Source: Thiohalocapsa sp. PB-PSB1 (GTDB lineage: Bacteria; Pseudomonadota; Gammaproteobacteria; Chromatiales; Chromatiaceae). Taken from it: 64,000 bases of DNA. The stretch covers positions 6,029,455 to 6,093,454 of the forward strand of contig CP050890.1 of NCBI GenBank assembly GCA_016745215.1. Direction: 5' to 3'. Below the pieces are notes generated by a model that saw only the letters and a list, made by a program, of their open reading frames with translations, was not told the DNA's origin and made no database searches. The stretch's first letter is position 1. Each line of letters starts with the position of its first letter. Shown here one piece after another: positions 7,043 through 32,638 of this stretch. Position numbers and translations under genes: made by a program.

Positions 7043-10000
7043 TTGCTCTCCCCCTTGTCATCAAGCAAATCGGCCTGGCTTTGAGCACACAGCTTGGCCG
7101 CACCGAGGGGCCAGGGCCTGCGATGGTAGGAGAGCGTCGGGATGCTTTGCCGCCCGGTCAGCCTCCAGGTGCGGCCGGCGGTGTTGGTGACCTCGGCCTT
7201 CAGATAACCGGTTTCGTCGAAGTCCAGCTGGATAGTCAATTTGCAGTCCCCCGCGTAGAAGAGGTCCGGAAGCAGGTTGAAGCAGGAGGTGAAGCCATTG
7301 TTGGTCTCAAGGCCGATTTGGACTTCGCTGGCGTCTTGCAGAAAGAACTCGACGCGCTTGCCGGACTCTGGATAGGCGAGAAAGTCCCATTGCTCGGCGC
7401 GGGGCTCATAGCGGACGCCAAAGACGCCGGCGGTCTTCGGCGACTCGATCTCGATGTTGCGCCAGCGGTATTCGCGCTCGACGACGCCGAGCACGACGAC
7501 GCGTTTGAGACTGTCGGCCTCGGCGTTGAAATCGACCCAGTTGGGAATGTCGCCCAAGGTCTTGGCGAGGCGCTCGCGAAAGCCTGGCCACAGCGAGGTA
7601 CGCCCGGACAGGATGACGGTGTCCGGCTGCTGCAGGTCTTTGCCCAAAAAGCGTTCGACCTCGACGCGGGTGACCCGGTCGATGAAGGCGCTGGCATAGG
7701 CACCATCGAGGATGCGCTCGCTCCGCGGTGTCCAGAAAACCTTGCCGGACTCGGTCGCGTCGATCTCGGCGATGCTGCGATACATGCCCCTGGTCTCTTC
7801 GGCCTTGGTCTTGACCAACTGGGCGGCGGTGGCATATTTGCTGGTGAGTTCCAGACGCGGTTTCTTGCCGGCGCTGAGATCGGCCTTGAGCTGGTGGATC
7901 TGCTGGCGCAATTCGTCCATGCGGGTGCTCTCGGCAACGCTCATGGTCTCGCCCTCGTCCTTGACGACGATCCTCGTGAGGTAGCGGTCGCCCAGGTTGG
8001 CATCGAGGTAGGCATGCAGGTCGCGGGCGATGCATTCGTCGAGCAGGTCGCCGGCCTTGGTGACACCGCCGCGGCGCAGCACACGGATGCGCTTGGGCGT
8101 GCGGCCGCCGGCGTCATTGCGGATCCAGTCCACCTCCAAATAGGTCAGGTCCAGGGTGCCGGCACCGATATCGTAGACCAGGATGCGCTCGCGGTCGGGC
8201 ACGACAGAGCCCGACGTGCGCAGGTCATGGGCATGCATCAAATAGTAATAGGCGACGGCGTCGGACTCGCTGATGAAGTGGATATTATCTGGGTAGACGA
8301 TGTTCTCGCCTTGGGCCATGCCGGAAAAGACCTGCTCGACGACCTTGCGCAACTGCTCGACGTGGTTCTGGGTGTAGGTGTTCGGGTGAGTGATATAGAC
8401 GTGGGAGTAGCCAGTGTTTTGCTGCTCCAGAATCGGCGCGATAAAGTGTTGTACCAACCCGTGGTAAGCGCCTTCGATGACGGCATCCAGCGGAGGTGAG
8501 CTGAGGTTCTCTGGCTGATCCGCAAGGTTCGTATAGGGATGCTTGCGGGCATCGATGGGCAGGACCGTATAGCCGGCGGAGATCAGAGCCTTCAGCGATG
8601 AAAAGCACGTATCCGGGTCATTGGTTAACGCAGACAGGATCAACGGCAGATCGAGGAAATCAGGGCTGTCGGGCCTTGTCCGCGCGAGCTTGTCCCGGTC
8701 GTTGCAGACATTGAGTTCGGAGGCCAGGAAGTAGGGATTGCGCTTGCCCGGGTCGTCCCAGCGGCGGTCGATCTTGGTCTCCTTCTCGATGGCGTCCAGG
8801 CGCTTGGGCAAGGGCAACAGCTCGATATTCTGAGGGCCGATGGCATGGGCGACGGCCATGGCCGAGGTGCCGAAATCGATGGCGAGGACATGGCGTGGCG
8901 GCTCGTGGCGCAGCAAACAGATCGCCTGGGCACTGGTCTGGAAGCGCTTCACCGCATTCTTGTCCCTGGGGTCTTTGGCATGGACCTGCCAGTCCACCTC
9001 GACCTCGATTTCCAGACGAAAGTCCCGCCCGGTGATGATGACGAGTTCCAGATCCAGCGTCGCGCTCAGGTCGAGCTGGCGCTCTTCGAGGACCGGACTG
9101 TCTCGCAATGTGCCGGCCGCGCGGGGTTCGCCGCGGCCGTCGAGCAGATTCAGGGCGCCGGGCTCGAGCTGGATGTTGTGGCGATGAGTGACCCTGATCC
9201 TGGCCTGCCAGTCGGCATGACCATGACCGTTGCGACAGGCGTTGCCCAGTCGCACCTTGAACAGATCGTGCTGGCGCATCCCCTCCTGAACGTGGCGGTG
9301 GACCGAGATGGGCCGCTGCCGGCTGCCGATCGGGAAGGGAGCCGACAGGCTGTTGCGCGCCTCGTTCAGCGCCTTGGAGCGCTGAGTCTCGGTATATAGG
9401 ATGACCACGGAGACGTCGGTGCGCTCGGCGGAGCGCTGCACCTCCAGGCGCCATTCGTCGATCTTTTGCCAGCGCGGCTTGTCCCTGGCAGCGGGAACCG
9501 GCAGGGGTAGATCGGCATCTTTTGGTGGCGCGTCTTCGACGGGTTCGGAGTAGAAGATAACGATGCGGTAATTGTCGCGCTCGATGGGATTGGATAATTT
9601 GCGGAAGTCCAGATGCAGATCGACCAGCATCGGCTCTTTGTGGCGCAGATAGAGTTCGAGCTGGCTGTCGCGGTCGTCGCGGTGGACCAGCTCGACGGCG
9701 CCGGACTTGGTTTTTCCCTGGGCATCGTGGACATCGACCCCGAGCAGCCCCCGGACGGTATAGCTATAGCGATGCATTGCGCTGCTTGTCAGCTGGTAGC
9801 TGGCGAAACGGCTGACGGCGCCGGCCTGGTACTCGACCGGTATGAACGGATGGCCGTCGTCGTCGGCCCGCAGATCCATGCACTTTTGGCACAAGTGGGT
9901 GCGCTCGGGGATCAGCTCGACGTCCCAATGGTGTTTGAGGGTGCGCTCGCCGGCGCGGCCGGCGCCGATGTGCACCTTCGCAGGGATGGTCAGCCTGGCG

Positions 10001-12081
10001 TGCTCGACGCCGGCGATTTGCTCCAGATCGACGATTTCGCGGGGGTTGAAGAACAGGGGCAGCTCTTTGCCGGAGGCGACCTTGCGCTCGCTGTAGGCGT
10101 TGTTGGAGGGGCCGCCGATGGCCAACGGGGCATCGTCTCGACGAGGGTCGGCGAAACGGGGCTCGATGTCGGCGGCGGTACCTTCGGCCTGATCGCTCGG
10201 GCGCAATGTGCCGGTGTTCAGGGTGGCCTCGATGTGGCGGAATTCGGCGGTGTAGCTCGGATTGGACCTGGTGTTTTTCAGCAGCAGCATGCCGATGAGT
10301 TCGGCGCGCTGGGTCTGGGTGTCGTTGAAGTCGATCAACAGTCCGTCCGAGGCCAGGTCTTTCATCTGCACGTCCAGGCGCCGGCGCGGCCACAACAGCC
10401 AGAACAGAATCGGGCCAAAGATGATGACGCCGGCCAAGGTCAGGTAGAGCAGCCAGGCGTGCAAGCGCAGTTCCGACTGGTTATCTTCGATGGCATCCTT
10501 CTTTTCGCGGGACAGACGCGCGATGTGCTTGGCGGTAACGATGTCCGGATCGCGCTGGTCTTGCTCGGCTCGCTTGCGCAGGTCAGGCTCCCAGGCTTCG
10601 GCAAGCCGCTCAAGCTCCGCGGTGTCGATGGGTCTTTCCTCGAAGCCCGCTCCATTGTCGGGGAACATCCACTTGGGACTTGGCAACCCGCCCGCGATGT
10701 CCGCGCTATCGGTGTTGAAGTAGCTGAAGCTGGGCTCTGGTTGGATAAGCGCCACCCTGGCAAGGTCGCGGGCGCCAAGGCGGTGGCGATAGGGGTACAG
10801 GGACGGGGTGTTGGTGTTGCCGGGGAACTCCATGACGAAGTGGACTCGATAGCGTAGTTGGGACGGTACCTGGCCTTCGGGATAGTCAAGCTCAGGACCG
10901 CCCTGGCCGCAGTCAACGCGATCGGAGTCTCGCGCCGGTGACTGGCATGGTATCCAGCGCGCGCCGTCTTCGCTCCACTCCATCTGGTCGGGAATTAGGC
11001 GGTAAAGACCGTTTGGGTCGTCGAAGCCGGTGGCGAAGATCGGATTGTTGCCGACGAGACGGACGCCAGCGTCGTCGGTGTTGCCGCGGCGATAGAGAAC
11101 ATCGAGGGTAACTCGTTTTTGCTCGGTACGGGCAAGACCGCTCAAGGCTGGCACCTTGGGCTCGACAGACAGATAGGAGATCAGAAAGCCCTTGCCCCAG
11201 CCGGAGACCTTCTTGTAGGCATCCGGGCGGCAATCGAAGGGTTGCGTGAAGACGCTCCGAACTTCATGAGTCGGCAACACGCAGTCGATAGACTCGGCGC
11301 CGATGTCAAAGACCTTGTTGACCTGCCTGCTCAGCGCTGCATGCTGGTCGAAGCCGTCGTCGGCCGCCGTTGTCTTGGAGCGTTTTTGGATGACCCTGTG
11401 TTCGTCGGAGGCGTTTGCGTCGCTGTTGAAATCGCCGTCGGTGATGCGAACGATGTAGGTATTGTCGACGTCGCTTTGCGGAAGTCCGCCATGTTGAAAA
11501 GCCTCGCCTAGAAAGGGCAGGCTGGCGGCCGTTGCGGCGACTAGTGGCGAATGGCCGCCGAACGCGTCCTTGAGCTGGATTTCGCCGACGGGCGTACCCT
11601 GGACGTCGGTTTGGGTGAAGGATAAATAGGCTTCGGTGGTGGGCAGTATCCAGCTCTTGAGCAGAATGTCGTTGGTCAAAAAGAGATCGTGCTGGCGATA
11701 GGAGGGATAATCGAAGTCCACCCGGAACAGCAGTACCGAGATTTCGTCAGCGGTTGGGTCGTACGTCGGAATGGGCGACGGGGTCTCTGTAAGGACCTTG
11801 TCGATGAATTGACGCATGATCTCCGCCATCGCCCGGTTATTTCCGGTCATGCCCTGCCAAAGGTTATCGACCTTGGCATGCTGCTTGTACACCGAGCCGC
11901 TGGCGTCGAACAGCACAATATAATGGTTTTTGGCCACTGCCAGCGTGGGCCAGGTAAGAGCCAATGCGATGAAGGCGACGGTCAGGGCTCGCCCCTGGCG
12001 GAGCAGCCATTCAAACGCTGCTGGCGTTGTTGTGCCGATCCCGCGCATCCCGGTTCTCCGATCGATCTTTCTGGTTTTCAT
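7039..12081 (-). CDS. giant membrane protein: signal/TM - vWA (MIDAS) - TM - Hsp70/actin-fold ATPase
   Basis: vWA motifs IVLFDASGSV ... RITDGDFNSD. Hsp70-like phosphate-1 LAIDFGTSAMAVA, phosphate-2 VYDIGAGTLDLTY, adenosine motif VILSGRTSLWPGF. The ORF in the track runs to 12567. I place the start at MKTRKIDRR (~12081) to avoid a 467-nt overlap with the upstream gene. Confidence 0.7.
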   Translation of the reverse strand: MKTRKIDRRTGMRGIGTTTPAAFEWLLRQGRALTVAFIALALTWPTLAVAKNHYIVLFDASGSVYKQHAKVDNLWQGMTGNNRAMAEIMRQFIDKVLTETPSPIPTYDPTADEISVLLFRVDFDYPSYRQHDLFLTNDILLKSWILPTTEAYLSFTQTDVQGTPVGEIQLKDAFGGHSPLVAATAASLPFLGEAFQHGGLPQSDVDNTYIVRITDGDFNSDANASDEHRVIQKRSKTTAADDGFDQHAALSRQVNKVFDIGAESIDCVLPTHEVRSVFTQPFDCRPDAYKKVSGWGKGFLISYLSVEPKVPALSGLARTEQKRVTLDVLYRRGNTDDAGVRLVGNNPIFATGFDDPNGLYRLIPDQMEWSEDGARWIPCQSPARDSDRVDCGQGGPELDYPEGQVPSQLRYRVHFVMEFPGNTNTPSLYPYRHRLGARDLARVALIQPEPSFSYFNTDSADIAGGLPSPKWMFPDNGAGFEERPIDTAELERLAEAWEPDLRKRAEQDQRDPDIVTAKHIARLSREKKDAIEDNQSELRLHAWLLYLTLAGVIIFGPILFWLLWPRRRLDVQMKDLASDGLLIDFNDTQTQRAELIGMLLLKNTRSNPSYTAEFRHIEATLNTGTLRPSDQAEGTAADIEPRFADPRRDDAPLAIGGPSNNAYSERKVASGKELPLFFNPREIVDLEQIAGVEHARLTIPAKVHIGAGRAGERTLKHHWDVELIPERTHLCQKCMDLRADDDGHPFIPVEYQAGAVSRFASYQLTSSAMHRYSYTVRGLLGVDVHDAQGKTKSGAVELVHRDDRDSQLELYLRHKEPMLVDLHLDFRKLSNPIERDNYRIVIFYSEPVEDAPPKDADLPLPVPAARDKPRWQKIDEWRLEVQRSAERTDVSVVILYTETQRSKALNEARNSLSAPFPIGSRQRPISVHRHVQEGMRQHDLFKVRLGNACRNGHGHADWQARIRVTHRHNIQLEPGALNLLDGRGEPRAAGTLRDSPVLEERQLDLSATLDLELVIITGRDFRLEIEVEVDWQVHAKDPRDKNAVKRFQTSAQAICLLRHEPPRHVLAIDFGTSAMAVAHAIGPQNIELLPLPKRLDAIEKETKIDRRWDDPGKRNPYFLASELNVCNDRDKLARTRPDSPDFLDLPLILSALTNDPDTCFSSLKALISAGYTVLPIDARKHPYTNLADQPENLSSPPLDAVIEGAYHGLVQHFIAPILEQQNTGYSHVYITHPNTYTQNHVEQLRKVVEQVFSGMAQGENIVYPDNIHFISESDAVAYYYLMHAHDLRTSGSVVPDRERILVYDIGAGTLDLTYLEVDWIRNDAGGRTPKRIRVLRRGGVTKAGDLLDECIARDLHAYLDANLGDRYLTRIVVKDEGETMSVAESTRMDELRQQIHQLKADLSAGKKPRLELTSKYATAAQLVKTKAEETRGMYRSIAEIDATESGKVFWTPRSERILDGAYASAFIDRVTRVEVERFLGKDLQQPDTVILSGRTSLWPGFRERLAKTLGDIPNWVDFNAEADSLKRVVVLGVVEREYRWRNIEIESPKTAGVFGVRYEPRAEQWDFLAYPESGKRVEFFLQDASEVQIGLETNNGFTSCFNLLPDLFYAGDCKLTIQLDFDETGYLKAEVTNTAGRTWRLTGRQSIPTLSYHRRPWPLGAAKLCAQSQADLLDDKGESK

Positions 12082-12100
12082 GCGAATTCGGTCCTGAGCA

Positions 12101-15100
12101 TCAATGCCAGCGCAGCAGTCCCCAAACGACAGCAACAAACTGTTCCAGCCAAGGATCCTGGTCGATGGGCGCCGCCAGGTCGTGGTTGCCGATCCGCCGC
12201 GCAAGGTCGTCCGGGGACTCTTCCGGACCAGCATTGAAACGACGCAGGGCTGGTTGACTGGCGGCCTCGGCCAGCCAGCGCTCGGCGATGCGTTGGAAGG
12301 TGGCCAACGGTGCCTGCTGCTGCTCGCCGAGGACGATCTCCGGGATGGTCTGTCCGGCAAGCCCGCGCACCGACCAGATGGTACGCATGCCGTCATCGCG
12401 TGCTTGCAGGCGGCCAGCAGCCAGGCCCTCCAGCGCAAAGCCGAGCAAGGCTTGGGGGTCGCGGCAGAGAGTGACCAGGGTCGCCGCCAGGGCCACGGGC
12501 TCGCGGTTCTCGGCGTGACAGTAGGCGTGGTAGCCGCGATAGGCGATGCGCTCTTCGTTGAAGACATAGGTCGGCACCAGAACCTCGCCCATCAGCGATG
12601 CGGTGATCGGGGCTGGCCACAGCCGGTTGCTGGGCAGGTGCTCCTCGCAGCTGATGACCCTGACCTCGAGGGCGTCGACTGGATCGAGCCGGACCTGATC
12701 GACATGTGCGGCACCAGCGTATTGATCGATACCCTGGACCAGAAACAGGCCGCGGGCGCCTTGAATCTGCTCGGTGCGCGGACGCTCGGGGCGCAGCTCG
12801 GGCATGTCGGCCAGATCTTGGTCGGCCAGGGTCCAGGTGGCGAAGTCCGGGCTCAGGTCGGTGCCGACCTCGATCAATTCCTCGGCCAGCTTGCCCAAGG
12901 CCTCGGTCTCCGCGGCCAGCCGGTCGGTGGTCCAGGTCAGATCTTGGCTGCCGCGGACCTGAAGGTTGATGTGCAGCTGGATGTCGTCGCGTTCGACGTG
13001 CCAGGCGAGCCGATCGGTGAGCCGATCGCCGAGCTTGGCCAGAAAGCGCTCGGGCAATCGCCCGATTTGCGCCCAATCCAACGGCAGGCGCGGTGAGCGC
13101 GGCGTGCCGCGGCGTATGCCATCAGTGCTGTCGGCATCGCGCAGGATGTCGATCTCGATGCGCAACAAGCCGGTGCGCTCGTCGAGCAGCCGCAGCAGGC
13201 CATCGCCGTCTTGGCCCTCGCCGAGATGCAGATCCCAGTCACCGAGACGACGCAGCAGGGTTTCGGTCTCGGTGATGGCCTGGGTGCTCAGTTCGGCGAC
13301 AGTCTCGGCCTCACGCCGGACCACCGGGGAGTTGGAGTGCCGGACCAGGTGGTCGGCAATCTCGGTGCCCTCGCGCAATCGGCCGGAGAGTTCGCGCAGA
13401 GCGTGGATGCAAATGGCCAAGGCATGGGGCTCGCAGATGTCCTGCCAGCCGTGGTTCAGGGTGTCCAGCAGCCACTTGTCCAGGACCGCCCGAACCAGCT
13501 CGCGCTGCTTTTCGAACAGTTCGTCACGGGCTAGCGGCGAGATGCCGCCGCTGATCTCGGGACCAGCACCATGGCTGAGATTCTGCTGCAGCTTGGTGGC
13601 ATCGGCCAGTGCCGACAAGGCGTTGAAGACCCAGGGGTAGTCGGTACCCTGCGGGCGCGCGTCCAGCCAGGCATGCAGCAGCAGAGCGACGCGCTCGGGC
13701 TTGTGGGCATCGACGCGATAGTCGACAAAGCTTTGCTCGTCCACATCCCAGAGCCGGTTGGCAAGGGTGCGGCGCAGGGTGTCGACGATCAAATAATCAC
13801 GCAACGTGGCCGGGTAGAGATAGTGGGAGGCGGGCTCCATGCGATACAACAGGCAGCGCCCCTGGGCGGCGGTCAGGCGAGCGTTTTCAGCATCCTGGCT
13901 GACAATGTGCCCGCGCAGGCTGCCGCTTTGGTCGCTGGCAACCCAGGTGAAGATGATCTCGGCGGTCTTTGGATAGAGAACCTCCTCGGCACGCCATTCC
14001 TCGCGGGCAGCGGGGCCGACGATCAGCACTCGATCGAACCAGCGCCGCACCGATGGCAGCCCTGGCGCCGGGGATATCGGTTCGCCGCGGCGGGTGGAAA
14101 AGCGGTCCAGTTCGGCAAGCAAAGCACGATGGTTGACCTCGCGCATGGCCCGTTCCTCGGGCAGGATGTCGAGGGTCTGCTGCGCATGGGGTGCCGATAA
14201 GAACAGGTTTGTAGCGCTGTCGCCAAAGCCGCGTTGCTCTAGCAGGTAGCGCAGCAGCCAGCAGAGGTCGAGCAGACCGCCGCTGCCGGTGCCGCCGCCG
14301 CTGCTGGCAGTGAGGATGAGGTCCAAACCGCGGTCGCCGGCGCGGGTAATCAGGTGATCGAGCAGCGGGCCGAGGCGGGCCTCCAGCTCGACGCGGTTCT
14401 CGAGTAGCGCCAGGCGTCCCAGCGGGCGCAGCAGACCAGTACCGCGATGCAGGTCGGGGCGCACGCCGCCGGCGCTCAGGGCGGCGGCATCGAGCCAGGC
14501 ATGAGCTGGCGCAGTGGCGGTGGCCTCGGTGGCGATGATGGGCTCTAGCGGACGCTCCAGCGTGATGCGCTGGTCCGGCTTCAGCCCGACCATGCCAGCC
14601 CTTGGCGATGGGAAGAACAGCTCGTCGGCGGTGTCGATGGCAAGGAAGCGCAGTTGCTCGGGGTCGACGCGCTCTTCACGCTCGGCGAGCAGGCGCTTGG
14701 CATGCACCAGGGCCTGGATGCCGGCATAACCGAGGCCAACGATCAGCGTCGGTCGCATTGACAGCTTTGGATCGGGCGACCTGGCCCGCTCGAGCAGTGG
14801 TGGCAACTCCAGCGGTTGGGGCTTGGGCTTTACGCTGAGCGGCGCCGCGGGAGGGGCCTCGCCGCAGCGTATGAAACGCCCGAACAGCAGATAATAGAGC
14901 GGGTTGAGGATGAGCCAGAGCAACTGCCAGCCGAGGATGCGGGGCAGCACCAAGACCCGGGGGCCGGCGTTGGATAGGCACTCGTGGGTTTGATTGTCGG
15001 TGGTCTTGGCGTCGAGCCGCGCCGGCTCCGGCGCGATCTGCCACCAGCCGGGGCAGAGCGCTTCGACATTGTAGTGCAGCTTGATCGGTTCTTCCTGCAA

Positions 15101-16039
15101 TACCGCGAGGAGCCAGCAGAATTCGCCGTCCTTGAGGCTGAAAGCGGACGGCTGCAATTCCCCCCAGCCGCGTAGCCCCCAACTGCTGGTGATCAGGTAA
15201 TGCTCAGAGACCTTGACCTCGGTGGCCTCGATGCCGGTGATCATGCGCCCGACCTCGGAATAGAGGGCGGTGAGCTGGTCGATCTGGTCAGCATGGAAGC
15301 AATGATCCGGGCTGCTGGCGATGCGGCGCAGCAGTGGCATGTCGGCGGCGCCGATACCGATGGTGATCAACAACAGGTCCGGATCTTGCTTGAGGGCTTC
15401 GGCGTTGGCGACGGCGGGCTCTGCCTCGCTGCCACCGTCACTGAGCAGCAGCACGGCACGCTGCCGCGGCTGGCCGTCCGGATCACCGGCATGCTGTTCC
15501 AGAGACTTACCGGCAACATCCAGGCCGAGGGCGATGTCGGTAGCGCCACCGCGGGCGATGCCCTTAAGAGCCCGGATCAGTCCCTGGCGGCGGTCGGTCA
15601 GCGGACAGACCTCGCGCGCCTCGTGGTCGAACTCGACCACCGAGAAGCGGAAGCTGCCCGGCGTGGTGCGTACTAGATTGATCGCCGCATCGCGCGCTCC
15701 CTGCAGGGCGCTGCCGAGTCCGGAACCCATGCTGCCGGAATGGTCGATGACCAGCACCAGATCCCAAGGCTCGGGCTCGGGCTCGGTCTCGGTTTGCGGT
15801 CGCGGCAGCCCGGTGGCGGAGCAGCCGAGGGTGACGCCGATGATGTCGCCGACGAGGCAGAGGCGGCGCTCTACGGTGCGCACCAGGGGCTGATTGGCCG
15901 GCTGCGGATTGCGCCCCATGAGCCAAAACAGCGCAAGACCCAGCAGCACCCACAATAAGAGAATCAGGCTCAGTATCAATAGCATTGTTCGGTTCCAGGG
16001 CTGACACCAATCCGTCGGTACCGCAGCGGCACCACCCAT
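12101..16039 (-). CDS. giant membrane protein: TM - vWA (MIDAS) - TM - tubulin/FtsZ-like GTPase
   Basis: 1312 aa. vWA motifs LVLVIDHSGSMGS ... LLLSDGGSE. T1-like loop IVGLGYAGIQA. Canonical tubulin/FtsZ signature in ILTASSGGGTGSGGLLDL. Confidence 0.7.
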   Translation of the reverse strand: MGGAAAVPTDWCQPWNRTMLLILSLILLLWVLLGLALFWLMGRNPQPANQPLVRTVERRLCLVGDIIGVTLGCSATGLPRPQTETEPEPEPWDLVLVIDHSGSMGSGLGSALQGARDAAINLVRTTPGSFRFSVVEFDHEAREVCPLTDRRQGLIRALKGIARGGATDIALGLDVAGKSLEQHAGDPDGQPRQRAVLLLSDGGSEAEPAVANAEALKQDPDLLLITIGIGAADMPLLRRIASSPDHCFHADQIDQLTALYSEVGRMITGIEATEVKVSEHYLITSSWGLRGWGELQPSAFSLKDGEFCWLLAVLQEEPIKLHYNVEALCPGWWQIAPEPARLDAKTTDNQTHECLSNAGPRVLVLPRILGWQLLWLILNPLYYLLFGRFIRCGEAPPAAPLSVKPKPQPLELPPLLERARSPDPKLSMRPTLIVGLGYAGIQALVHAKRLLAEREERVDPEQLRFLAIDTADELFFPSPRAGMVGLKPDQRITLERPLEPIIATEATATAPAHAWLDAAALSAGGVRPDLHRGTGLLRPLGRLALLENRVELEARLGPLLDHLITRAGDRGLDLILTASSGGGTGSGGLLDLCWLLRYLLEQRGFGDSATNLFLSAPHAQQTLDILPEERAMREVNHRALLAELDRFSTRRGEPISPAPGLPSVRRWFDRVLIVGPAAREEWRAEEVLYPKTAEIIFTWVASDQSGSLRGHIVSQDAENARLTAAQGRCLLYRMEPASHYLYPATLRDYLIVDTLRRTLANRLWDVDEQSFVDYRVDAHKPERVALLLHAWLDARPQGTDYPWVFNALSALADATKLQQNLSHGAGPEISGGISPLARDELFEKQRELVRAVLDKWLLDTLNHGWQDICEPHALAICIHALRELSGRLREGTEIADHLVRHSNSPVVRREAETVAELSTQAITETETLLRRLGDWDLHLGEGQDGDGLLRLLDERTGLLRIEIDILRDADSTDGIRRGTPRSPRLPLDWAQIGRLPERFLAKLGDRLTDRLAWHVERDDIQLHINLQVRGSQDLTWTTDRLAAETEALGKLAEELIEVGTDLSPDFATWTLADQDLADMPELRPERPRTEQIQGARGLFLVQGIDQYAGAAHVDQVRLDPVDALEVRVISCEEHLPSNRLWPAPITASLMGEVLVPTYVFNEERIAYRGYHAYCHAENREPVALAATLVTLCRDPQALLGFALEGLAAGRLQARDDGMRTIWSVRGLAGQTIPEIVLGEQQQAPLATFQRIAERWLAEAASQPALRRFNAGPEESPDDLARRIGNHDLAAPIDQDPWLEQFVAVVWGLLRWH

Positions 16040-16078
16040 TGGGGGTGGCCACCGGGTTGCAGCACCAAGGCCATGCGC

Positions 16079-19000
16079 TCAATCCTTCGCGAGCCAGGCC
16101 AGATAGTCGGTGAAATGAATGTCCAAAGTGTCGGGCTCCGGAGGAGGCCTCGATGCATCCTCCACCGGCACGGTCAGCGCATGGCTGACGTAGTAGGCGG
16201 CCGCATCGGCCAGCGACTGGCTTTGCAACAGACTGACGCGCTGCTGACCGTTGGCCGCGTGTACGTACCACAGATTATCACTGGGATTACGGCTGACCTG
16301 GCCGTTCTGGTAAAGGCGTGCGAACTGTTGCAGACGCGGTCGGTCTTCCAGGGCGATGCCAAGTACTGGCGGCAAAACCAGGCCATCGCGCCCAATAGCA
16401 TCGGCGAACTTGGCCGCCTCGCGCTGAAGCAGACGATCGGGCCGATGCAGCAGCTGCGCGTCGCGTGCGGCACTTCCTCCCTCGCTGAGTTCAGCCTGCA
16501 ATAACGGCAGGGCTTGCAGCAGGCTGATACGATTGCGATCATGCAATGCAACCACCTTGACCTGCTCGGCGGCGTTGACGGTCAGCTGTCGCAGGGTGCG
16601 AATCAGCTTAGTCTGGAAGGCGTGCAGTTCGGGATCGGCGATGCACTCGAGATCCGGTAGCGTCGCCAACAGGCTGCTACGCTCGCCACGCAACGGGCCT
16701 TTGAGGCTGTTGACAAAGGGCACCAGGGCCTGATCGCTGTCATCCTCGGTGACCGCGCGCAGCATCGATAACACGTGAAAATCGTTGGCGCGGTCGAACA
16801 CCGGCCCGGCCTCCTCGCGCAGATCCTTCTCAAAGCGTTGCAGTTCCGCCAGGCTCGGTCCATAGCGTCGCGCCTTGGCTCCGCGCAGAACCAGGTTGAC
16901 GCCGACCGGGTCGCCACCAAAACCTGGGGCGCTGAGTTCCCAATGGCAGCGCCCGGCGAGCACCGGAACCAGCTTTTCGTCATCGGTATTGAGCCAGCCA
17001 CGCACAAAGCTCGACAGCAAGTCGTCGAGCTTGCGTTCCAGGCTGTCGCGATCGGCCAGGTCGGCACTGGTCAGCGGTGCTAGCAGTGTCCGCGAGCGGC
17101 CTCGCTCCCATTCGATCAACCGATCCAGCACCTGCCCTGAGTCGGTGGAACGCTCGACCAGAATGCCGCCATAGTCGGTGAGCAGAGCGCCATCGCCGAG
17201 CTCTACCAGCAGGCGGCTGCCGAGGAAGAGTTCGATCCAGGTCAGGGCCTGGCGACGGACGGCATCGAACACATTGCCTAGATCGGAAAGCACCGGATTG
17301 GCGCCCCGGTCAACGCATTCGCCCAGGTGCCTGGACATGGTGTTGGCCATGCGTGCAAGGGCGAGCAATCCCAGGGTGCGCTCGCGCAGCTCGCGGTTGG
17401 CATTGGTAATCAACCGCACTCGCATGGCGTTGGCTGCCTCGGTGAGGAGATCGCTGTCCAGGGACAAGCTGTCGAGAGCCTCGCAATGGCCCAGAGCCGC
17501 TTGGCAGAGGGCGGCAACCATGCCTGCTGGATCGACTCCGGAGTCAAGTCCGCAGAGCTTCTCGCCATCGACGGGAAGCGGCTCAAGTGTCGCTCGGCCC
17601 TGGTCGTGCTCTAGTTCCGGGAACAATACCTGTCGGTTGCCGAGCAGATTGATCAAGCGATTGAGCAACAGCTCGCGGAAGAAGCTGCGGGGGAAAACCG
17701 CATCGTGAACGGCGATCTCGGTGTAAAGTTCGCGCCCTTGCTCGGCCCGTCGCCGCACTTCGGCACCCTGGATGGCCTGGAGCTGATAGGTCAGCTCGGT
17801 ACGCCGGGAGCGGTCAAGCAGCAGCATCGCGGCATCGGCTGCTGCCGGCAGATCGTCGGCGTCGAGTCCGTTGCGGCCCGCCCGCATGGGCAGTGCGAAG
17901 ATCGCGTCCTGGGGGCGACGGCTGACCAGGCCATCGAGCGCGCTCGGTTTTATGTCTTTGGCTGTTGTGTCTTTGGCGCCGTCAAGCTGATCGGGGTTGG
18001 CTGCGACAGCAGCCAGACGGTGCTGGAACGGACGGCTGCCGGCGGTTGCCAAGCGGTCGATCTCGGCAAACAATACCGGCGAGTCCAGCGGCACCAAGGT
18101 GCCGCGCTTGGCTTGGCGCTCACCAATGAGCAGACAGTTGAGCTCGACCGCCTGACCGGCATGCTCGTCGTCGGCGACCAGTCTGCGCAACAGGATCAGC
18201 ATGTCGGTCAGCCAACCGGTGCTGACGCCGCCACGCAGGCTGGCGACCAGAAGGATTTGGCGTCGGCGTTGCTCTGGGCGGATCTTGCGCCAATCGTCCA
18301 GCGCTCGGGTCAAACGGTTCAGCAGAGCGCTCCGCCCACCATTGGCGAGATCGTTCAACAGGGCTAATCGGGCAAGCGGCGCCTGGCCTCGAGTGCCATT
18401 CGATAACCGTAGCGCTTCGGCGCCCATATCGACATAAGGGTAAAGGTCGAGCGCCGCCGCCGGGTCATTGCGATCGCGGATGGCCCGTTGCTGTTGCTGG
18501 TGGACGGCGTCGTACAGTGCGCAGGATTCGGTCGGGAGCACGAACACCTGATCGCGCGAGAGCGGGTCGAGACAACCCGGGACTGGCTCGCCAGCACCAT
18601 CGCGCAATTCGTCGCGGGCGACATCCAGCGCCAACAGAACCGGCTGACTGTCGGCATGATTAAAGCTGTCGGCTAGGTTCTGTTTGATCTGTGTCAGAAC
18701 CGCACGGGCCGAACCGCCCAGACCGAGCACTAGTGTTGGAACCCAATCGACGCGCTGGGCATCGGGCGGGAAGCGTAGGGGTAGATTTGGTGGTGGGCGG
18801 TATTCCTTGCGCCATTGTACCGGCGCAAGCTCCGGCGGTGTTGCCGAGGCGCGGAACAGCCAGGCGAGCCAAGTCGCCAGCAGGTAGGCAATGGCCGGCA
18901 GCATCAGCATGAACAGGAACAGCCAGGTGACCACCAACACCTTCGGCATGGCCTCTGTATCCGGCTTGATCCGATAAGGCTCGCCGGACGATGTGGTGTA

Positions 19001-19993
19001 GCGCACCTGCGCGGGCTCATGCAATGTTTTCAGGATGCCGCCCATCTTCGGGTCTAGGGCAGCCTGCCAGGTGTAGGGGCGGGGGAACAGGGTGCCGATG
19101 CGAAACTGTTCCGAATTCTTATCATAGGGCTCGATCCTGATCCGTTCCCGCGTTGCGTCGGTCTTGTCCCCGGGGTCGTCTCCCCAAGACCAGAGAGGCG
19201 CGGCGAGCGGCAGGCTGAGTGCGGCGTTGCGGCCGAGCGCATTGCCCATCCGAGCCGCTACCTCCTGGAACAGCAAGCCGATGGTGCCGGTGGAGGCCGA
19301 GGCCAGGATATACCGGGACGGGTCTTCGGTCAGGCCGAAGAAGCTCTCGGGATCTTCGGCTCCGGTGCCGACTCCGAGCAGGTACAGCTCGTGGCCCGAG
19401 CGTTTCCATCGTGCATCGTAGAACTGGGCCAATGTGGCGGTACTTTCCGCGGCTTCGCCGTCGGTGAGCATGACGACGGTACCAAGCTCGCCGGTGGCTT
19501 CCATCATCGCCAATGCTTCGGTCAGCCCCGCCAGGAACTGGGTTCCGCCGCCGGCATCCGGCCATGGGCGCTGTAGTTGGTATGCCAGCTCGGCCATGTC
19601 CGACGTGAACGGGCTGACGATCTTGGCCTGACTGCCGAACTCCATCAGCCCGATGCGCACTGGAATGCCGCTGCTGGCGAGGTTGCGCTGCATCTCGAAG
19701 ACGGCTTGCCGGGCATCGCTGATGTACATCTGCATCGAGCCCGAGGTGTCAATCAGGAACAATAACGGTGCCTGTTGCCGCACATCCGGCGCGCGGATGC
19801 CCTCAGCGCCGCTGTAGTCGATCCAGAGCTCGGCCGTCTCCCAGGGCAGCACGATGTCGCGCGGGACGGTCACCCGTAAGGGATCATCGGCGGCGGGCTG
19901 AGGCTGGGTCAGCTTCACCCAAAGGGCCATGCCGCCCAAGACCGCCAGTCCGAGGATAACCAACAGCAGCGTTCGCCAGAGGGTCCGCATCAT
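16079..19993 (-). CDS. paralogous giant membrane protein: TM - vWA - TM - tubulin-like domain with degenerate signature
   Basis: 1304 aa with the same architecture. vWA motifs LFLIDTSGSMQ ... VMLTDGEA. T1-like LVLGLGGSARAV. The T4 position reads LVASLRGGVSTGWL instead of GGGTGSG. Confidence 0.6.
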   Translation of the reverse strand: MMRTLWRTLLLVILGLAVLGGMALWVKLTQPQPAADDPLRVTVPRDIVLPWETAELWIDYSGAEGIRAPDVRQQAPLLFLIDTSGSMQMYISDARQAVFEMQRNLASSGIPVRIGLMEFGSQAKIVSPFTSDMAELAYQLQRPWPDAGGGTQFLAGLTEALAMMEATGELGTVVMLTDGEAAESTATLAQFYDARWKRSGHELYLLGVGTGAEDPESFFGLTEDPSRYILASASTGTIGLLFQEVAARMGNALGRNAALSLPLAAPLWSWGDDPGDKTDATRERIRIEPYDKNSEQFRIGTLFPRPYTWQAALDPKMGGILKTLHEPAQVRYTTSSGEPYRIKPDTEAMPKVLVVTWLFLFMLMLPAIAYLLATWLAWLFRASATPPELAPVQWRKEYRPPPNLPLRFPPDAQRVDWVPTLVLGLGGSARAVLTQIKQNLADSFNHADSQPVLLALDVARDELRDGAGEPVPGCLDPLSRDQVFVLPTESCALYDAVHQQQQRAIRDRNDPAAALDLYPYVDMGAEALRLSNGTRGQAPLARLALLNDLANGGRSALLNRLTRALDDWRKIRPEQRRRQILLVASLRGGVSTGWLTDMLILLRRLVADDEHAGQAVELNCLLIGERQAKRGTLVPLDSPVLFAEIDRLATAGSRPFQHRLAAVAANPDQLDGAKDTTAKDIKPSALDGLVSRRPQDAIFALPMRAGRNGLDADDLPAAADAAMLLLDRSRRTELTYQLQAIQGAEVRRRAEQGRELYTEIAVHDAVFPRSFFRELLLNRLINLLGNRQVLFPELEHDQGRATLEPLPVDGEKLCGLDSGVDPAGMVAALCQAALGHCEALDSLSLDSDLLTEAANAMRVRLITNANRELRERTLGLLALARMANTMSRHLGECVDRGANPVLSDLGNVFDAVRRQALTWIELFLGSRLLVELGDGALLTDYGGILVERSTDSGQVLDRLIEWERGRSRTLLAPLTSADLADRDSLERKLDDLLSSFVRGWLNTDDEKLVPVLAGRCHWELSAPGFGGDPVGVNLVLRGAKARRYGPSLAELQRFEKDLREEAGPVFDRANDFHVLSMLRAVTEDDSDQALVPFVNSLKGPLRGERSSLLATLPDLECIADPELHAFQTKLIRTLRQLTVNAAEQVKVVALHDRNRISLLQALPLLQAELSEGGSAARDAQLLHRPDRLLQREAAKFADAIGRDGLVLPPVLGIALEDRPRLQQFARLYQNGQVSRNPSDNLWYVHAANGQQRVSLLQSQSLADAAAYYVSHALTVPVEDASRPPPEPDTLDIHFTDYLAWLAKD

Positions 19994-20026
19994 CTTCCGC
20001 TCTCCTTAAGGTTCAGTTGTCAGCGC

Positions 20027-23000
20027 TCAGCTTCGAGAGCCTAGGAAAGGCCGAAGGTGGTGGGTCATGATCAGTCCGAGGAAGGCGTCCTTCCCTATCA
20101 TCGCGCCGTTGCGACTCTGCTCCAGTTCGACCCGAAAGAGGTGTGGTTGGGCATCATGAAATGCTGCGGCCATCGCTTCCAAGGTCTTGCCCTCAGCGGC
20201 AAGTGCCTCCTCCATCCAGCCCTGCACGCGGCGCAGATCGATCGCGCCGCGGGTTCGGCGGCGGCGATCGTTGCGGTCCATGGTGAAGGTAATCAGTGCG
20301 CGCAGCAGATCTTTCGGGTCATTGTCGTCTTCGGGATCGTTGAGGTAGATCAGCTGTTTGGTGTCCTGCTCGGATACGGGTCCGCAGATCCAAACCTTGC
20401 CGCCGGTGGCAATCGGCTGGCCACGGATCACCCCGACCACCAGGGCCTTGGTGAATATCTCCACGGACTTCGGATCATCGAGCAGGCGGCAGAACTGACC
20501 TGGGATCTCGGGGAAATGCGTATCCCGCGTCTCGACGACCTGGGCATGCTCCATGCGCCAAGCCTCTTGGTCGCATCGGAACAGGTGATAGGTCTCGGCA
20601 CGCCATTCGGGATAGTCCTCGTCGCGCACCCGCAGGTAGTCTGCCCGCATCCGATCTAGGGCGCGGATTTCTCCATAGGGGATGGCGTTATCCGCCATCA
20701 GCACGGCAAGCACGTTGCGGTCCCTGAAACGATTGACTCCGTTGGTATCGGTGAGGTTGTGTGTGATCTTGCCGGACATATTGGCATCGCCGGCCATGGC
20801 GTTGTAGACGTCGTCGAAGGCGTCATCGCCATCGCGGTCCCGATTCCAGCTATCGCCATGCAGCAGCAGCAGCTTGCGGCTATCGGACGTGGGCCGTTGA
20901 TCGAGAAAGTTGCTGGTCACCGAGCGCAGTCGATCGGCAAGCGAGGTCACCGGGTCGCGCTTGTCATCGCGCAGCCACTTCAGGTAGCGCGCCATGCCCT
21001 CGAATTCCTTGACGCGCTTACCGATCCGTGTCGACAATGCGTGGTTGAGGGTTTTGGGGAAATCGCGGGCGGCGAGCAGGTCGCGTTCAGGCCAGCCTTC
21101 CAGCGCTAGATCCTGCGGGCGTTGTCCGGGCTTCCAGGTCAACTTGAGGAGCAGGTCGTCGACGAACGACTTCTCGGTCTGCGGGTCGAGCAGGCAGCGC
21201 TTGCGCAGGAAGTCCCGATAGCCATCCATATCGACAGTATTTTTGACGCCCATGGAAGCCGATCGGTGCTGGGTCTGGCGATCAAGGCGCTCTGCGATCT
21301 CGCTGCCCTCGTCAGTGGCCTCCTGGACCACCCGCAACAGCCCTTGCTGCCAATCCTGGATGCCGTTGAGCCAGCTGGTGACATGTTGATCGGCGACCTT
21401 GAGCATCTCCTGGATGAATTCGACCAATTGGCCGCGCTGCAGCCACTGGTTGACCTCGTTGGCAGCGTTCAGGTACGCCTCTTCGGTGTCCGCGAGCTGA
21501 CCTTTCCAGCCCAGAAGCTTCTTTTCTAATTCCACCAGTGCAACGCGGGCGTCCTTTTCCTCATTGCGCGCTCCTTCCAGCCCAGCGCGATCGTCAGCGA
21601 CGATCTGTTCCAGTGTATTGCGCAGTTCTGACATCAGCTTGCCAAGCTCATTGATGATCCGATTCGTCTTGCCCAGCGCCATCTCGCGGGCCTGTTGCTT
21701 GCCTAGGTACTTGCGGACACTATCATCGATGGAGGTTTGGATGCGCTCGACGATCAACGGGCGGATCAACGCCACCGATGCCTTGAAGCCACCGATGCCG
21801 TCGCCATCGTAGTCACGACGCCGCAGGGCGACCTCGGCCTGTACTCGCTCTTTGGAATCGTCGAATTCTTCCTTGACATCGCGAACGGTCTGAATGTCTT
21901 CGAAGATGTCGGCAAACAGGCGGCTGGCCGCCATCTCCTTGTCCTCGCCGATGGGGCGGCCAAACACGCCCAGCGGATTCGCGAAGCCGAGCATATCATT
22001 GACGATGAACGAGGGATTCATCTGATCCGATAGATCCTGGCGCTCCTTTTCGGTGTCGGGCTCTTTCAGGATGCGGAACAGTGCGAACAACTCGGTGGAA
22101 AGGATGTCTTCCGCATCCCGGCGACGATCGTCCGCTGAGCCTGCGAGCAGTACCTGGGTATCGGTATCGCGCGGCAGGAGCCCGTTGGCGACATCCAATG
22201 CGGCATCGAGCACGAACTGACGCTCATAGAGGCGAGTTGGGATAAAGATGCGGTGGGAGTTGAACGAGGTAGCGGCTCCCTCCCTGGCGTTGATCCATTG
22301 GCGAAAGATTTCGTCGCCGGCGGAATCGTCCAACAGCAGGTTCAACCCGTCGGCGATTTCGGAAAAATAGGACTTGCGTCCGTCGGCACTCTTGCACTCG
22401 CGGTTGTAAAAGACCAGATTGTCGAACAATTTGTCGGTCAGGCTGACGCGGGTCGAGGAATCATAGTCGACCGAGAAGCGGATGCCGTCCTCTTGCTCAC
22501 TGATCCGACCGCGATATTCGGTCTCGACGGGTGCCTGGAACCGCTCCAGCTCGCGTATCACGGCGTAGGCCCGGGCACCATCGATGTCGACGTCCTTGTA
22601 GGCGTCCGGCAATACCGCCGCGCCGATGATGCGGAAGCGAAGCCCCATCTGCTCGGCCACCAGCCGGGCGAGCAATGCCAGATCCATGTAGAGTCCGGCG
22701 CCGGTGCCGCCGGCGACCGAGCCAATGATCCAGATCGGCAATTCGCCATCGGCGTGCCCGCAATTCTCCATCGCATAGCGCAGCATGCTGACGACGCGCT
22801 GCTTATTCAGAAAGGCACCCATCCGCGCGAACTGCCGATGCTGTCCGGCACCGCGCACCAGGTTGAAGTCAGCATTGGACAGGTTTTCCTGGAATAGGTC
22901 GGCGCGATACCAGCGCGCCATCTCGGCCATGGTTTGTGGGTCGCGGGCGACCTTGCGGGTATAGTCGGCAAAGGTGCCGGGGGGGTCGTCCTGGAGCTGC

Positions 23001-23218
23001 AGATATTCGTTGCCTTCGATCGCCGTCGCCGAACCCTCGCCGCCCAGGCGCGCGCCCTTGTTCTTGCGATGGTCGTCGGCTTCGGTGTCGATCAACCGAA
23101 ACTGCAGGGTAGGTGGGATCGAGCCCGATGTGGCATAAACCTTGTCTTTCAGACGGGCGAGTACCTCGTCTCCAGTTCCACCGATGCCGATAAACAGACT
23201 GCGCATGCCGTTCTCCAA
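20027..23218 (-). CDS. standalone large tubulin/FtsZ-like GTPase
   Basis: 1063 aa. N-terminal LFIGIGGTGDEV (T1-like) and IIGSVAGGTGAGLYMDLALL, matching [SAG]GGTG[SA]G, about 160 aa downstream. Confidence 0.7.
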   Translation of the reverse strand: MENGMRSLFIGIGGTGDEVLARLKDKVYATSGSIPPTLQFRLIDTEADDHRKNKGARLGGEGSATAIEGNEYLQLQDDPPGTFADYTRKVARDPQTMAEMARWYRADLFQENLSNADFNLVRGAGQHRQFARMGAFLNKQRVVSMLRYAMENCGHADGELPIWIIGSVAGGTGAGLYMDLALLARLVAEQMGLRFRIIGAAVLPDAYKDVDIDGARAYAVIRELERFQAPVETEYRGRISEQEDGIRFSVDYDSSTRVSLTDKLFDNLVFYNRECKSADGRKSYFSEIADGLNLLLDDSAGDEIFRQWINAREGAATSFNSHRIFIPTRLYERQFVLDAALDVANGLLPRDTDTQVLLAGSADDRRRDAEDILSTELFALFRILKEPDTEKERQDLSDQMNPSFIVNDMLGFANPLGVFGRPIGEDKEMAASRLFADIFEDIQTVRDVKEEFDDSKERVQAEVALRRRDYDGDGIGGFKASVALIRPLIVERIQTSIDDSVRKYLGKQQAREMALGKTNRIINELGKLMSELRNTLEQIVADDRAGLEGARNEEKDARVALVELEKKLLGWKGQLADTEEAYLNAANEVNQWLQRGQLVEFIQEMLKVADQHVTSWLNGIQDWQQGLLRVVQEATDEGSEIAERLDRQTQHRSASMGVKNTVDMDGYRDFLRKRCLLDPQTEKSFVDDLLLKLTWKPGQRPQDLALEGWPERDLLAARDFPKTLNHALSTRIGKRVKEFEGMARYLKWLRDDKRDPVTSLADRLRSVTSNFLDQRPTSDSRKLLLLHGDSWNRDRDGDDAFDDVYNAMAGDANMSGKITHNLTDTNGVNRFRDRNVLAVLMADNAIPYGEIRALDRMRADYLRVRDEDYPEWRAETYHLFRCDQEAWRMEHAQVVETRDTHFPEIPGQFCRLLDDPKSVEIFTKALVVGVIRGQPIATGGKVWICGPVSEQDTKQLIYLNDPEDDNDPKDLLRALITFTMDRNDRRRRTRGAIDLRRVQGWMEEALAAEGKTLEAMAAAFHDAQPHLFRVELEQSRNGAMIGKDAFLGLIMTHHLRPFLGSRS

Positions 23219-32584: not shown

Positions 32585-32638
32585 GGCAAACCTCTCGGAC
32601 AGTTCAGGGATTAGGGAAGATGTCGGTATTTGGCAACG

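Follow-up and report, generated by a model that had tools for sequence, protein, structure and literature searches.

Three tandem FtsZl1 tubulin-like paralogs, two of them fused to vWA domains and membrane helices, in a conserved operon of Thiohalocapsa sp. PB-PSB1

Three consecutive genes for tubulin-like proteins lie on the minus strand of the 64,000-nucleotide stretch of DNA analyzed here (hereafter the window), which comes from Thiohalocapsa sp. PB-PSB1, a purple sulfur bacterium of the Chromatiaceae. Their open reading frames (ORFs) occupy positions 12101-16039 (1312 aa), 16079-19993 (1304 aa) and 20027-23218 (1063 aa). An earlier note had taken their products for tandem paralogs of the tubulin/FtsZ superfamily, two of which carry a von Willebrand factor A (vWA) domain and a transmembrane (TM) helix upstream of the tubulin-like domain. 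We are now nearly certain that the three genes are paralogous members of the FtsZl1 branch of this superfamily, equivalent to the Pfam family Tubulin_2 (PF13809); their naming as tubulin-like is therefore correct yet already known, and they do not represent a new kind of tubulin. The features of these genes are the following.

12101-16039, minus strand: 1312-aa vWA-TM-tubulin-like fusion with canonical loops, identical to the NCBI gene call (P0001)
14090-14752, minus strand: tubulin-like GTP-binding domain of the 1312-aa protein, S1 to H5, residues 430-650 (Pfam, hhalign)
16079-19993, minus strand: 1304-aa vWA-TM-tubulin-like fusion with degenerate nucleotide loops (Pfam, collinearity with the 1312-aa protein)
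18044-18733, minus strand: tubulin-like GTP-binding-domain region of the 1304-aa protein, residues 421-650 (Pfam, collinearity, motifs)
20027-23206, minus strand: soluble FtsZl1/Tubulin_2 protein, 1059 aa when read from the ATG at 23206
23168-23188, minus strand: T1 loop GIGGTGD of the soluble protein, residues 7-13, with G7, G9, G10, G12 and D13 invariant in 31 orthologues
22694-22714, minus strand: T4 signature AGGTGAG of the soluble protein, residues 165-171, with A165, G166, T168, G169, A170 and G171 invariant
22313-22372, minus strand: predicted H7 helix and T7-like loop of the soluble protein, residues 279-298, SYFSEIADGLNLLLDDSAGD (model helices, conservation)

The family assignment is carried by Pfam scores and by motifs that the three proteins have in common. 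Against the curated cut-off of 27 bits for Tubulin_2, the 1063-aa protein scores 107.3 bits (E 1.3e-30) and the 1312-aa protein 66.8 bits (E 2.7e-18), whereas the 1304-aa protein remains slightly under the cut-off with 24.0 bits (E 2.7e-5). The last of these aligns collinearly with the 1312-aa protein over residues 17-655 (E 2e-18), a span that takes in the vWA domain, both TM helices, the T1 loop and the position of T4; the two are therefore true paralogs of the same architecture, as the earlier note had proposed, and through this collinearity, together with the T3-like and H5 motifs, the 1304-aa protein can be placed by homology in the FtsZl1/Tubulin_2 family. The T3-like (G-T/A-x-G...R-L-A) and H5 (E-L-x-R) motifs are in register across all three families, and the glycines of the T1 loop (GIGGTGD in the soluble protein, GLGYAG in the 1312-aa and GLGGSA in the 1304-aa protein) are invariant among orthologues. 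Both glycine-rich motifs that had been quoted as T4 signatures are found verbatim, SSGGGTGSGG at residues 579-588 of the 1312-aa protein and AGGTGAGL in the 1063-aa ORF; their SGGGTGSG and AGGTGAG conform to the GGGTG(S/T)G signature, the latter being invariant among orthologues, but the 1304-aa protein departs from it with RGGVSTGW at residues 587-594. A T1 loop indeed precedes T4 in each case (residues 435-440 in the 1312-aa and 424-429 in the 1304-aa protein), although not at the spacing that the earlier note had expected, the distance being approximately 147-158 residues in the three proteins. In FtsZ itself the spacing is nearer 85 residues. An orthologue of the 1063-aa protein is labeled 'tubulin-like domain-containing protein' by NCBI, while a scan of the three proteins with NCBIfam returned weak vWA matches only and no tubulin-type model. 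The further label of 'cytoskeletal GTPases' may apply to the three proteins.

The two fusions follow the same plan. In the 1312-aa protein, TM1 (19-40) precedes a vWA domain (93-260; Pfam VWA, E 1.9e-18) that contains the metal-ion-dependent adhesion site (MIDAS) motif DHSGS at 99-103, after which come TM2 (368-390, with a conserved LNPLYY), a proline-rich linker, the loops T1 (435-440), T3-like (RGTGLL, 532-537) and T4 (SGGGTGSGG, 580-588), and a C-terminal part of about 660 residues in which no domain is recognized. Across 19 orthologues its MIDAS residues D99, S101, S103, T167 and D201 do not vary. The 1304-aa protein has TM1 at approximately 9-26, a vWA domain at 77-234 (VWA_2, E 4.3e-13) with the MIDAS motif DTSGS at 82-86, TM2 at 352-380, a T3-like NGTRGQ at 532-537 and the degenerate RGGVSTGW at the T4 position. 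Hydrophobic helices thus flank the vWA region on both sides in each fusion, and in each a basic linker, rich in proline and about 40 residues long, leads from TM2 to the tubulin-like domain. Because a GTP-using domain must be cytoplasmic, the vWA domains would be periplasmic; the existence of the two fusions, as claimed earlier, is borne out by Pfam (vWA plus Tubulin_2) and by the TM helices, while the periplasm-facing orientation of their vWA domains is a prediction from hydropathy and flanking charge. Comparison of the soluble with the 1312-aa family by hhalign (Prob 96.6, E 5e-10) aligns residues 2-225 of the former with 430-649 of the latter, that is from S1 to H5, and it is for this GTP-binding half only that homology of the fusions is shown.

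The soluble paralog, for which the listed ORF reaches a TTG at 23218, has its probable start, like its orthologues, at the ATG at 23206, giving 1059 aa. Its layout comprises a two-domain tubulin/FtsZ fold from residue 1 to about 345, helical regions and an alpha/beta C-terminal part. In the AlphaFold2 (AF2) model built from an alignment of 31 orthologues (mean predicted local distance difference test, pLDDT, 89.1), long helices span residues 474-644, one of them 78 residues long (567-644), and the protein thus has the FtsZl1 architecture of an FtsZ-like domain, a long coiled coil and a helical C-terminal domain. The best 50 Foldseek matches of this model in the PDB are all chains of CetZ, FtsZ, tubulin or TubZ, and the model aligns with two-domain tubulin/FtsZ structures over approximately 300-325 residues, from which it follows that both halves of the fold are present. 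A complete two-domain tubulin/FtsZ fold is thus predicted with high confidence for the soluble paralog, including a second domain that the sequence analysis of 2010 (Makarova and Koonin 2010, Biol Direct 5:33) had missed, and the fold prediction that the earlier note had proposed as a check returns the full tubulin/FtsZ fold rather than a generic Rossmann fold. This second domain (residues 227-345) is as conserved as the GTPase half, with mean identities of 63% and 66%, respectively. The model shows a short loop between helices 274-290 and 294-304, which we read as the equivalents of H7, T7 and H8 from the order of the elements rather than from a residue-level superposition. The invariant D286 (31/31) lies in the first helix; in the loop, an acid occupies position 293 in every sequence (D in 29 and E in 2); position 298 is D in 17 and N in 12. 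An acidic T7 residue, the other check that had been suggested, is therefore tentatively present in the soluble paralog; the 1312-aa family lacks an invariant acid there. According to the model, the soluble paralog alone of the three shows a complete two-domain fold together with a conserved acidic T7-like residue.

The three genes stand in the middle of a tightly spaced unit of eight minus-strand genes extending over about 25 kb, from 30136 to 4661. In the order of transcription these encode a CAP protein, a helical protein of 1116 aa, a vWA protein, the soluble FtsZl1 protein, the 1304-aa and the 1312-aa fusions, a vWA-like-TM-Hsp70 fusion and a membrane protein of 793 aa. The five genes that accompany the tubulin-like ones are listed below.

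29105-30136, minus strand: CAP/SCP-domain protein of 343 aa, first gene (Pfam CAP, E 3.8e-13)
25568-28918, minus strand: protein of 1116 aa with no known domain and no predicted TM helix
23284-25629, minus strand: vWA protein, ORF of 781 aa (Pfam VWA_2, E 2.8e-8)
7039-12081, minus strand: vWA-like-TM-Hsp70 fusion, 1680 aa in the NCBI call or 1669 aa from the Met at 12048
4661-7042, minus strand: membrane protein of 793 aa, last gene, with a weak homologue at the same position of the related locus L001 (E 1.4e-13)

A TM segment at residues 11-29 of the CAP protein represents an N-terminal membrane anchor or signal sequence. The 1116-aa protein, which has no match in Pfam or in a sequence search of the PDB, is probably all-helical and cytoplasmic. 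The vWA protein probably starts at Met26 of its ORF (approximately 25554) and consists of a signal peptide, a vWA domain with the MIDAS motif DQSGS, a beta-rich region, a TM helix (633-651) and a tail of about 130 aa; its vWA domain is predicted to be periplasmic and its tail cytoplasmic. In all related loci its gene is the immediate upstream neighbor of the soluble tubulin-like gene, and the DxSxS motif is present both here and in the two fused vWA domains. The Hsp70 fusion is built in the order of signal peptide, vWA-like domain with a MIDAS-like DASGS, TM helix (533-553), beta-rich repeats predicted to be cytoplasmic, and the nucleotide-binding domain plus beta-sandwich of Hsp70. A reading of this gene as 1842 aa was rejected, given that it overlaps the 1312-aa gene with its first 162-173 codons, that NCBI calls a shorter protein and that the Met at 12048 is preceded by a Shine-Dalgarno sequence. 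No Pfam model detects the Hsp70 part (HSP70, E 0.28, not significant), which emerges from hhalign of the family profile against E. coli DnaK (E 6.9e-6, DnaK residues 48-385, with the phosphate-2 and adenosine motifs aligned) and from an AF2 model of moderate confidence (pLDDT 70), the best 50 Foldseek matches of which all belong to the Hsp70 family (E 3.7e-14, about 640 columns). Only 9 homologues of this fusion were found among 5.8 billion proteins. The 793-aa protein, the gene of which overlaps the preceding stop by 4 nt and is followed by a terminator-like hairpin at 4628-4612, contains a signal peptide, a coiled-coil/low-complexity region predicted to be periplasmic, a TM helix (329-347) and a helical part predicted to be cytoplasmic. 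Membrane-spanning proteins, bitopic or two-pass, account for five of the eight products, and a predicted design of periplasmic vWA domain, TM helix and cytoplasmic assembling nucleoside triphosphatase (NTPase) thus occurs three times in one operon.

The six genes from CAP to the 1312-type fusion form a core with a constant gene order across Gammaproteobacteria, Acidobacteriota and Chloroflexota. We found this order in a 1.5-Mb metagenome contig, in Candidatus Thiosymbion oneisti, in Candidatus Kentrum and in another uncultured gammaproteobacterium and, with the same gene sizes, in a metagenome-assembled genome of the Pyrinomonadaceae (Acidobacteriota) and also in Candidatus Epilinea brevis (Chloroflexota). 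The CAP gene heads the cluster in five related loci (L004, L005, L006, L009 and L010). Homologues of the 1116-aa protein occupy the matching position in L004-L007, while in L009 and L010 that place is taken by an ORF of comparable length, without recognizable similarity or a Pfam match. Only some of the loci have the Hsp70 fusion; it follows the tubulin genes in the window and in L001 and is absent from L006. In two proteins of Chloroflexota (L011, positions 8942-16027, and P0020, the latter with additional PD40 repeats), CAP, vWA and Tubulin_2 are joined in one polypeptide of about 2300 aa, which ties CAP to the system encoded by the operon.

While the T4 signature AGGTGAG of the soluble paralog is kept in all related loci, the loss of T4 in the anchored paralogs is complementary. 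In gammaproteobacterial loci the 1312-type protein has a T4 like SGGGTGSG and the 1304-type orthologues have xGGVGxGW. The situation is reversed in the acidobacterial locus L009 (9923-17301) and in L010 of Chloroflexota (9767-17249), where the 1304-type protein has DGGTGSGW or DGGVGSGW, respectively, and the 1312-type protein reads IADAECSG or ADDAEASG at the T4 position. One anchored paralog is intact at T4 and the other degenerate in each of the eight loci examined, which is a small sample. This regularity suggests that the anchored paralogs may function together as a pair, nucleotide binding being required of one of the two only. Of separate note, Ca. Epilinea brevis has a fourth, short Tubulin_2 gene (565 aa; L010, 20982-22679, minus strand) on the opposite strand, 4 kb downstream, adjoining an FtsK/SpoIIIE-like fragment.

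Fusion of vWA to Tubulin_2 is a recurrent architecture. It was found in 26 of 27 relatives, and among 37 other Tubulin_2 cluster representatives, in which the Tubulin_2 domain starts more than 300 residues from the N-terminus, the fused domains were vWA in 16, protein kinase in 16, PD40 repeats in 8 and CAP in 2. The arrangement that the earlier note had not seen described thus occurs repeatedly in the databases, although the literature searched contained no paper describing the vWA-Tubulin_2 fusion. The close family is small: when the 1312-aa protein's cytoplasmic part served as query, an exhaustive search returned 331 cluster representatives at E <=1e-3 and only 22 at <=1e-10, and close relatives were two among 185,579 species representatives. 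When the soluble paralog was used as query, a phage collection gave zero matches and plasmids gave only distant FtsZl1 genes, located on Thermaceae megaplasmids.

The operon may lie in an accessory island. Genes for IS-family DDE transposases at 369-1907 (plus strand) and 44079-44909 (minus strand) bracket the region from 2 to 44 kb of the window, and patatin-like phospholipase genes are found inside it (42887-43792, minus strand) and just beyond it (48135-49193, minus strand). From approximately 49 kb onward the genes are ordinary chromosomal ones, including those for an MscS-type channel, fumarate reductase/succinate dehydrogenase subunits, NamZ and a bacteriophytochrome. Upstream of the operon, between the CAP and the EAD7 genes described next, a protein of the SPFH/Band-7 type (388 aa) and one with HEAT-like 'DNA_alkylation' repeats (386 aa) are encoded at 31418-33799 (minus strand). 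A separate cluster on the same strand follows at 33796-41456, 4-12 kb upstream of the operon. It contains two EAD7 proteins, one at 33796-34767 and one combining EAD7 with a phosphorylase-superfamily (PNP_UDP_1) domain at 34545-35948, two unassigned membrane proteins (769 and 384 aa), and, 9 kb upstream, a DO-GTPase2-like gene with a TM helix (38991-41456, minus strand) that scores a borderline 27.6 bits against a cut-off of 27 bits. The 769-aa and 821-aa proteins of the cluster are not detectably paralogous. This cluster looks like a GTPase-centric conflict system of the type described by Kaur et al. (2020). Its candidacy as a conserved part of the tubulin system was rejected, as no homologue lies beside the operon in L001 and L004-L010, compared over flanks of up to 10 kb, or less where contigs end sooner. 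The Pfam families GAP1, GASH and FNIII have no match in the operon proteins or in the ORFs beside the DO-GTPase2 gene, and the eight-gene unit contains no DO-GTPase gene. In another setting, the Meiothermus taiwanensis plasmid pMtWR-220 (L072, 7300-13733) carries a distant trio of vWA protein, 'tubulin-like domain-containing protein' and hypothetical protein, flanked by DUF1156, Swt1-family HEPN and ATP-binding genes and by a BrxL gene of BREX, a setting that looks like a defence island.

What these observations might mean can be formulated as follows. The four MIDAS-bearing vWA domains and the CAP protein would face the periplasm, and the three tubulin-like domains together with the Hsp70 domain would face the cytoplasm. 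The two membrane-anchored paralogs would form a heteromeric pair, one with intact and the other with degenerate GTP-binding loops, the periplasmic vWA domains of which may bind a conserved ligand or partner through their MIDAS. Clustering of the pair driven by the ligand would then allow its cytoplasmic domains to seed or anchor the GTP-dependent assembly of the soluble coiled-coil FtsZl1 protein on the inner face of the membrane, with a membrane-attached polymer or scaffold as the outcome. The domain predicted to sense outward and the tubulin-like domain are covalently linked and must therefore act together across the inner membrane. Such a device could mediate a thresholded response to invasion or envelope insult, as proposed for the conflict systems of Kaur et al. 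(2020), its output being membrane-proximal assembly or remodeling rather than an enzymatic toxin. As a whole, our best explanation is a trans-envelope device of the 'conflict system' type, the assembly of which is gated by the binding of a ligand, and we consider it evenly poised between right and wrong. Ligand-gated assembly across the envelope has, taken by itself, slightly less than an even chance. The defence role is more tentative and only weakly favored over its rival; we count for it the DO-GTPase2-like gene, the two EAD7-tagged proteins, the two patatins and the IS elements within 20 kb, the position of the Meiothermus plasmid vWA-FtsZl1 pair between a Swt1-HEPN gene and BrxL, and the patchy distribution across several phyla. 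A more specific version, in which the operon would encode an 'integrin-like' trans-envelope cytoskeletal coupler, with a MIDAS-headed pair of GTP-competent and degenerate paralogs templating the soluble tubulin-like polymer and an Hsp70 tethered in parallel, appears decidedly unlikely. If it were true, a tubulin paralog would here act, for the first time, as the receptor that nucleates a tubulin-superfamily polymer, and this would imply outside-in structural signaling in aggregate-forming and host-attached bacteria.

Several results weigh against the ligand-gated conflict device. The regions following H5 in the soluble and fused families gave nothing alignable by hhalign, either at full length or trimmed, and in the zone of the 1312-aa family that matches T7 only P690 and E694 are invariant, with no invariant T7-type acid. 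In the same family the vWA domain is the best-conserved part, its identity of 66% exceeding that of the tubulin part (57%) and of the C-terminus (40%), unlike what a rapidly diversifying antigen sensor would show. The predicted topology, with vWA periplasmic and the tubulin-like domain cytoplasmic, derives from hydropathy and flanking charge only. The conserved operon contains no recognizable toxic effector domain, a PADLOC scan of the three tubulin-like proteins produced zero matches to defence models, and the DO-GTPase, GAP1 and FNIII components are not conserved beside the operon in other genomes. Finally, the literature searched holds no experimental study of GTP binding, hydrolysis or polymerization by FtsZl1 proteins.

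Part of this evidence would suit a non-immune machine of the envelope or of adhesion, either a membrane-remodeling or vesicle-forming complex or an integrin-like anchor of a MIDAS domain to an intracellular polymer. This main rival is in itself doubtful, although nearly as likely as the conflict role. Strong conservation of vWA is expected for a fixed ligand, neither a toxic effector domain nor a PADLOC match was found, and five of the eight proteins span the membrane. Moreover, many carriers are aggregate-forming, filamentous or surface-attached bacteria, such as the Thiohalocapsa of pink berries, Ca. Thiosymbion, an ectosymbiont of nematodes, Ca. Kentrum, a symbiont of ciliates, and the filamentous Ca. 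Epilinea. Membrane remodeling was also the original proposal for the operons of FtsZl1 and vWA (Makarova and Koonin 2010). However, the very patchy spread over three phyla with retained gene order suggests horizontal transfer of an accessory module, close relatives are limited to the two species representatives mentioned above, several genomes have defence and mobile genes close by, and a multicellular habit has been linked to conflict systems as well (Kaur et al. 2020).

The other two alternatives concern the tubulin-like domains themselves. It is unlikely that these do not polymerize and serve instead as membrane-tethered GTP-binding switches or pseudo-GTPase scaffolds, which would transmit a conformational or dimerization signal while the long C-termini do the work. 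Such a role would agree with the lack of anything alignable past H5 in the fusions, with the loss of the T4 signature in one fused paralog per genome, and with the finding that most of the distant FtsZl1 relatives align to the soluble-family profile only up to approximately residues 200-250. On the other hand, the model of the soluble paralog aligns with two-domain tubulin/FtsZ structures over the 300-325 residues given above, the protein keeps the invariant Asp of H7 and the always-acidic T7-like residue, conservation of the second domain matches that of the GTPase half, and its long coiled coil is typical of assembling proteins. That the motifs are chance glycine-rich matches in generic Rossmann-like or P-loop-like domains unrelated to tubulin/FtsZ is extremely improbable. 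This notion might draw on the 1304-aa protein remaining under the Pfam cut-off, on the sequence profile search of the PDB with the soluble family, which found no tubulin but coiled-coil noise only (no FtsZl1 structure being solved), and on the comparison of the soluble-family profile with E. coli FtsZ, in which the T1 region alone was aligned (E 0.043, probability 1.2%), a result that is uninformative because the template is a single sequence. It is contradicted by the Tubulin_2 matches of the other two proteins (E 1e-30 and 3e-18) and by the presence in register of T1, T3-like, T4 and H5 in all three families.

The FtsZl1 family and its operon link to vWA proteins are already known. FtsZl1 proteins, equivalent to PF13809, are roughly 1000 aa long and consist of an FtsZ-like GTP-binding domain at the N-terminus, then a coiled coil, then a helical C-terminus; they contain family-specific inserts between T1 and T4, are alignable with FtsZ only up to helix H5, and share their operons with vWA proteins, which in many cases are secreted or bound to the membrane, the last point being the main finding of Makarova and Koonin (2010). 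A later phylogenetic study considered Tubulin_2 as a divergent 'FtsZ-like' group and used it as the root of the FtsZ/tubulin tree. The present genes share with these proteins the T1 loop, a T4 of the GGGTG(S/T)G type, the T1-T4 inserts, the limit of alignment at H5, the coiled coil with helical C-terminus, the membrane-bound or secreted vWA partner (COG2304) with an intact MIDAS and the abundance of membrane proteins in the operon. They differ in having vWA and TM fused in two of the three paralogs, whereas the paper reports vWA as a separate neighboring gene and lists protein kinase as the only N-terminal fusion; in the fixed order of three paralogs with CAP and a helical protein; in a conserved core without genes for a P-loop GTPase, OmpA or kinase; and in the second domain, from H7 to the C-terminal part, seen in the model of the soluble paralog. 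In the literature searched we did not find the vWA-TM-FtsZl1 fusion, the CAP-headed operon with three paralogs in fixed order, the exchange between lineages of which anchored paralog is degenerate at T4, the accompanying vWA-TM-Hsp70 fusion or any indication that an FtsZl1 protein has a complete second domain. FtsZl1 constitutes the most divergent and least understood branch of tubulin/FtsZ, for which two computational proposals compete in the literature searched, membrane remodeling and an anti-invader conflict system, and the operon provides an unusually constrained test case for whether these proteins polymerize and what triggers them.

The conflict systems with DO-GTPases of the GAP1-N2 type (Kaur, Burroughs, Iyer and Aravind 2020, eLife 9:e52696), which include tubulin, vWA and/or HSP70, resemble the operon in combining tubulin with coiled-coil proteins (two in Firmicutes), in their TM-anchored extracellular vWA and HSP70 variants, in their occurrence in multicellular or aggregating bacteria and in the regulated assembly of cytoskeleton-like complexes proposed for them. 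What defines them, however, is the presence of DO-GTPases, GAP1 and a protein with FNIII repeats; the conserved operon contains none of these, and on this genetic evidence we would not count the operon among them. Their tubulin theme was reported from Firmicutes and Actinobacteria only, and as not overlapping with the HSP70 theme, whereas the operon occurs in Gammaproteobacteria, Acidobacteriota and Chloroflexota, has both themes together and unites vWA, TM and NTPase in one polypeptide. The parallel vWA-TM-Hsp70 fusion suggests a general design in which an extracytoplasmic MIDAS domain is wired to an assembling NTPase.

With FtsZ, CetZ, TubZ/PhuZ, BtubA/B and alpha/beta-tubulin the three proteins share the glycine-rich T1 and, apart from the degenerate 1304-aa copy, T4, and the soluble paralog may share also the Asp of the H7-equivalent helix and an acid in the loop leading to the helix read as H8. 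The pairing of an intact with a degenerate paralog might be seen as recalling heterodimers of the alpha/beta type. Unlike canonical tubulin polymers, the proteins show identities of 9-17% only, large T1-T4 inserts, roughly 700 additional residues at the C-terminus and no FtsZ_C or Tubulin_C Pfam domain, and two of them are integral to the membrane with a predicted periplasmic domain. The protein kinase-FtsZl1 fusions of Planctomycetes likewise place a signaling domain N-terminal to Tubulin_2, in as many representatives (16) as vWA, but their partner is a kinase instead of the extracytoplasmic vWA domain found here. The combination of an extracellular MIDAS vWA/I-domain, a single TM helix and an intracellular cytoskeleton, in a heterodimer of two related membrane subunits, is characteristic of integrins. 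These offer a functional analogy only, with no homology beyond the vWA fold; integrins reach the cytoskeleton via adaptors, whereas in the fusions of Thiohalocapsa the polymer-type domain lies within the receptor chain itself.

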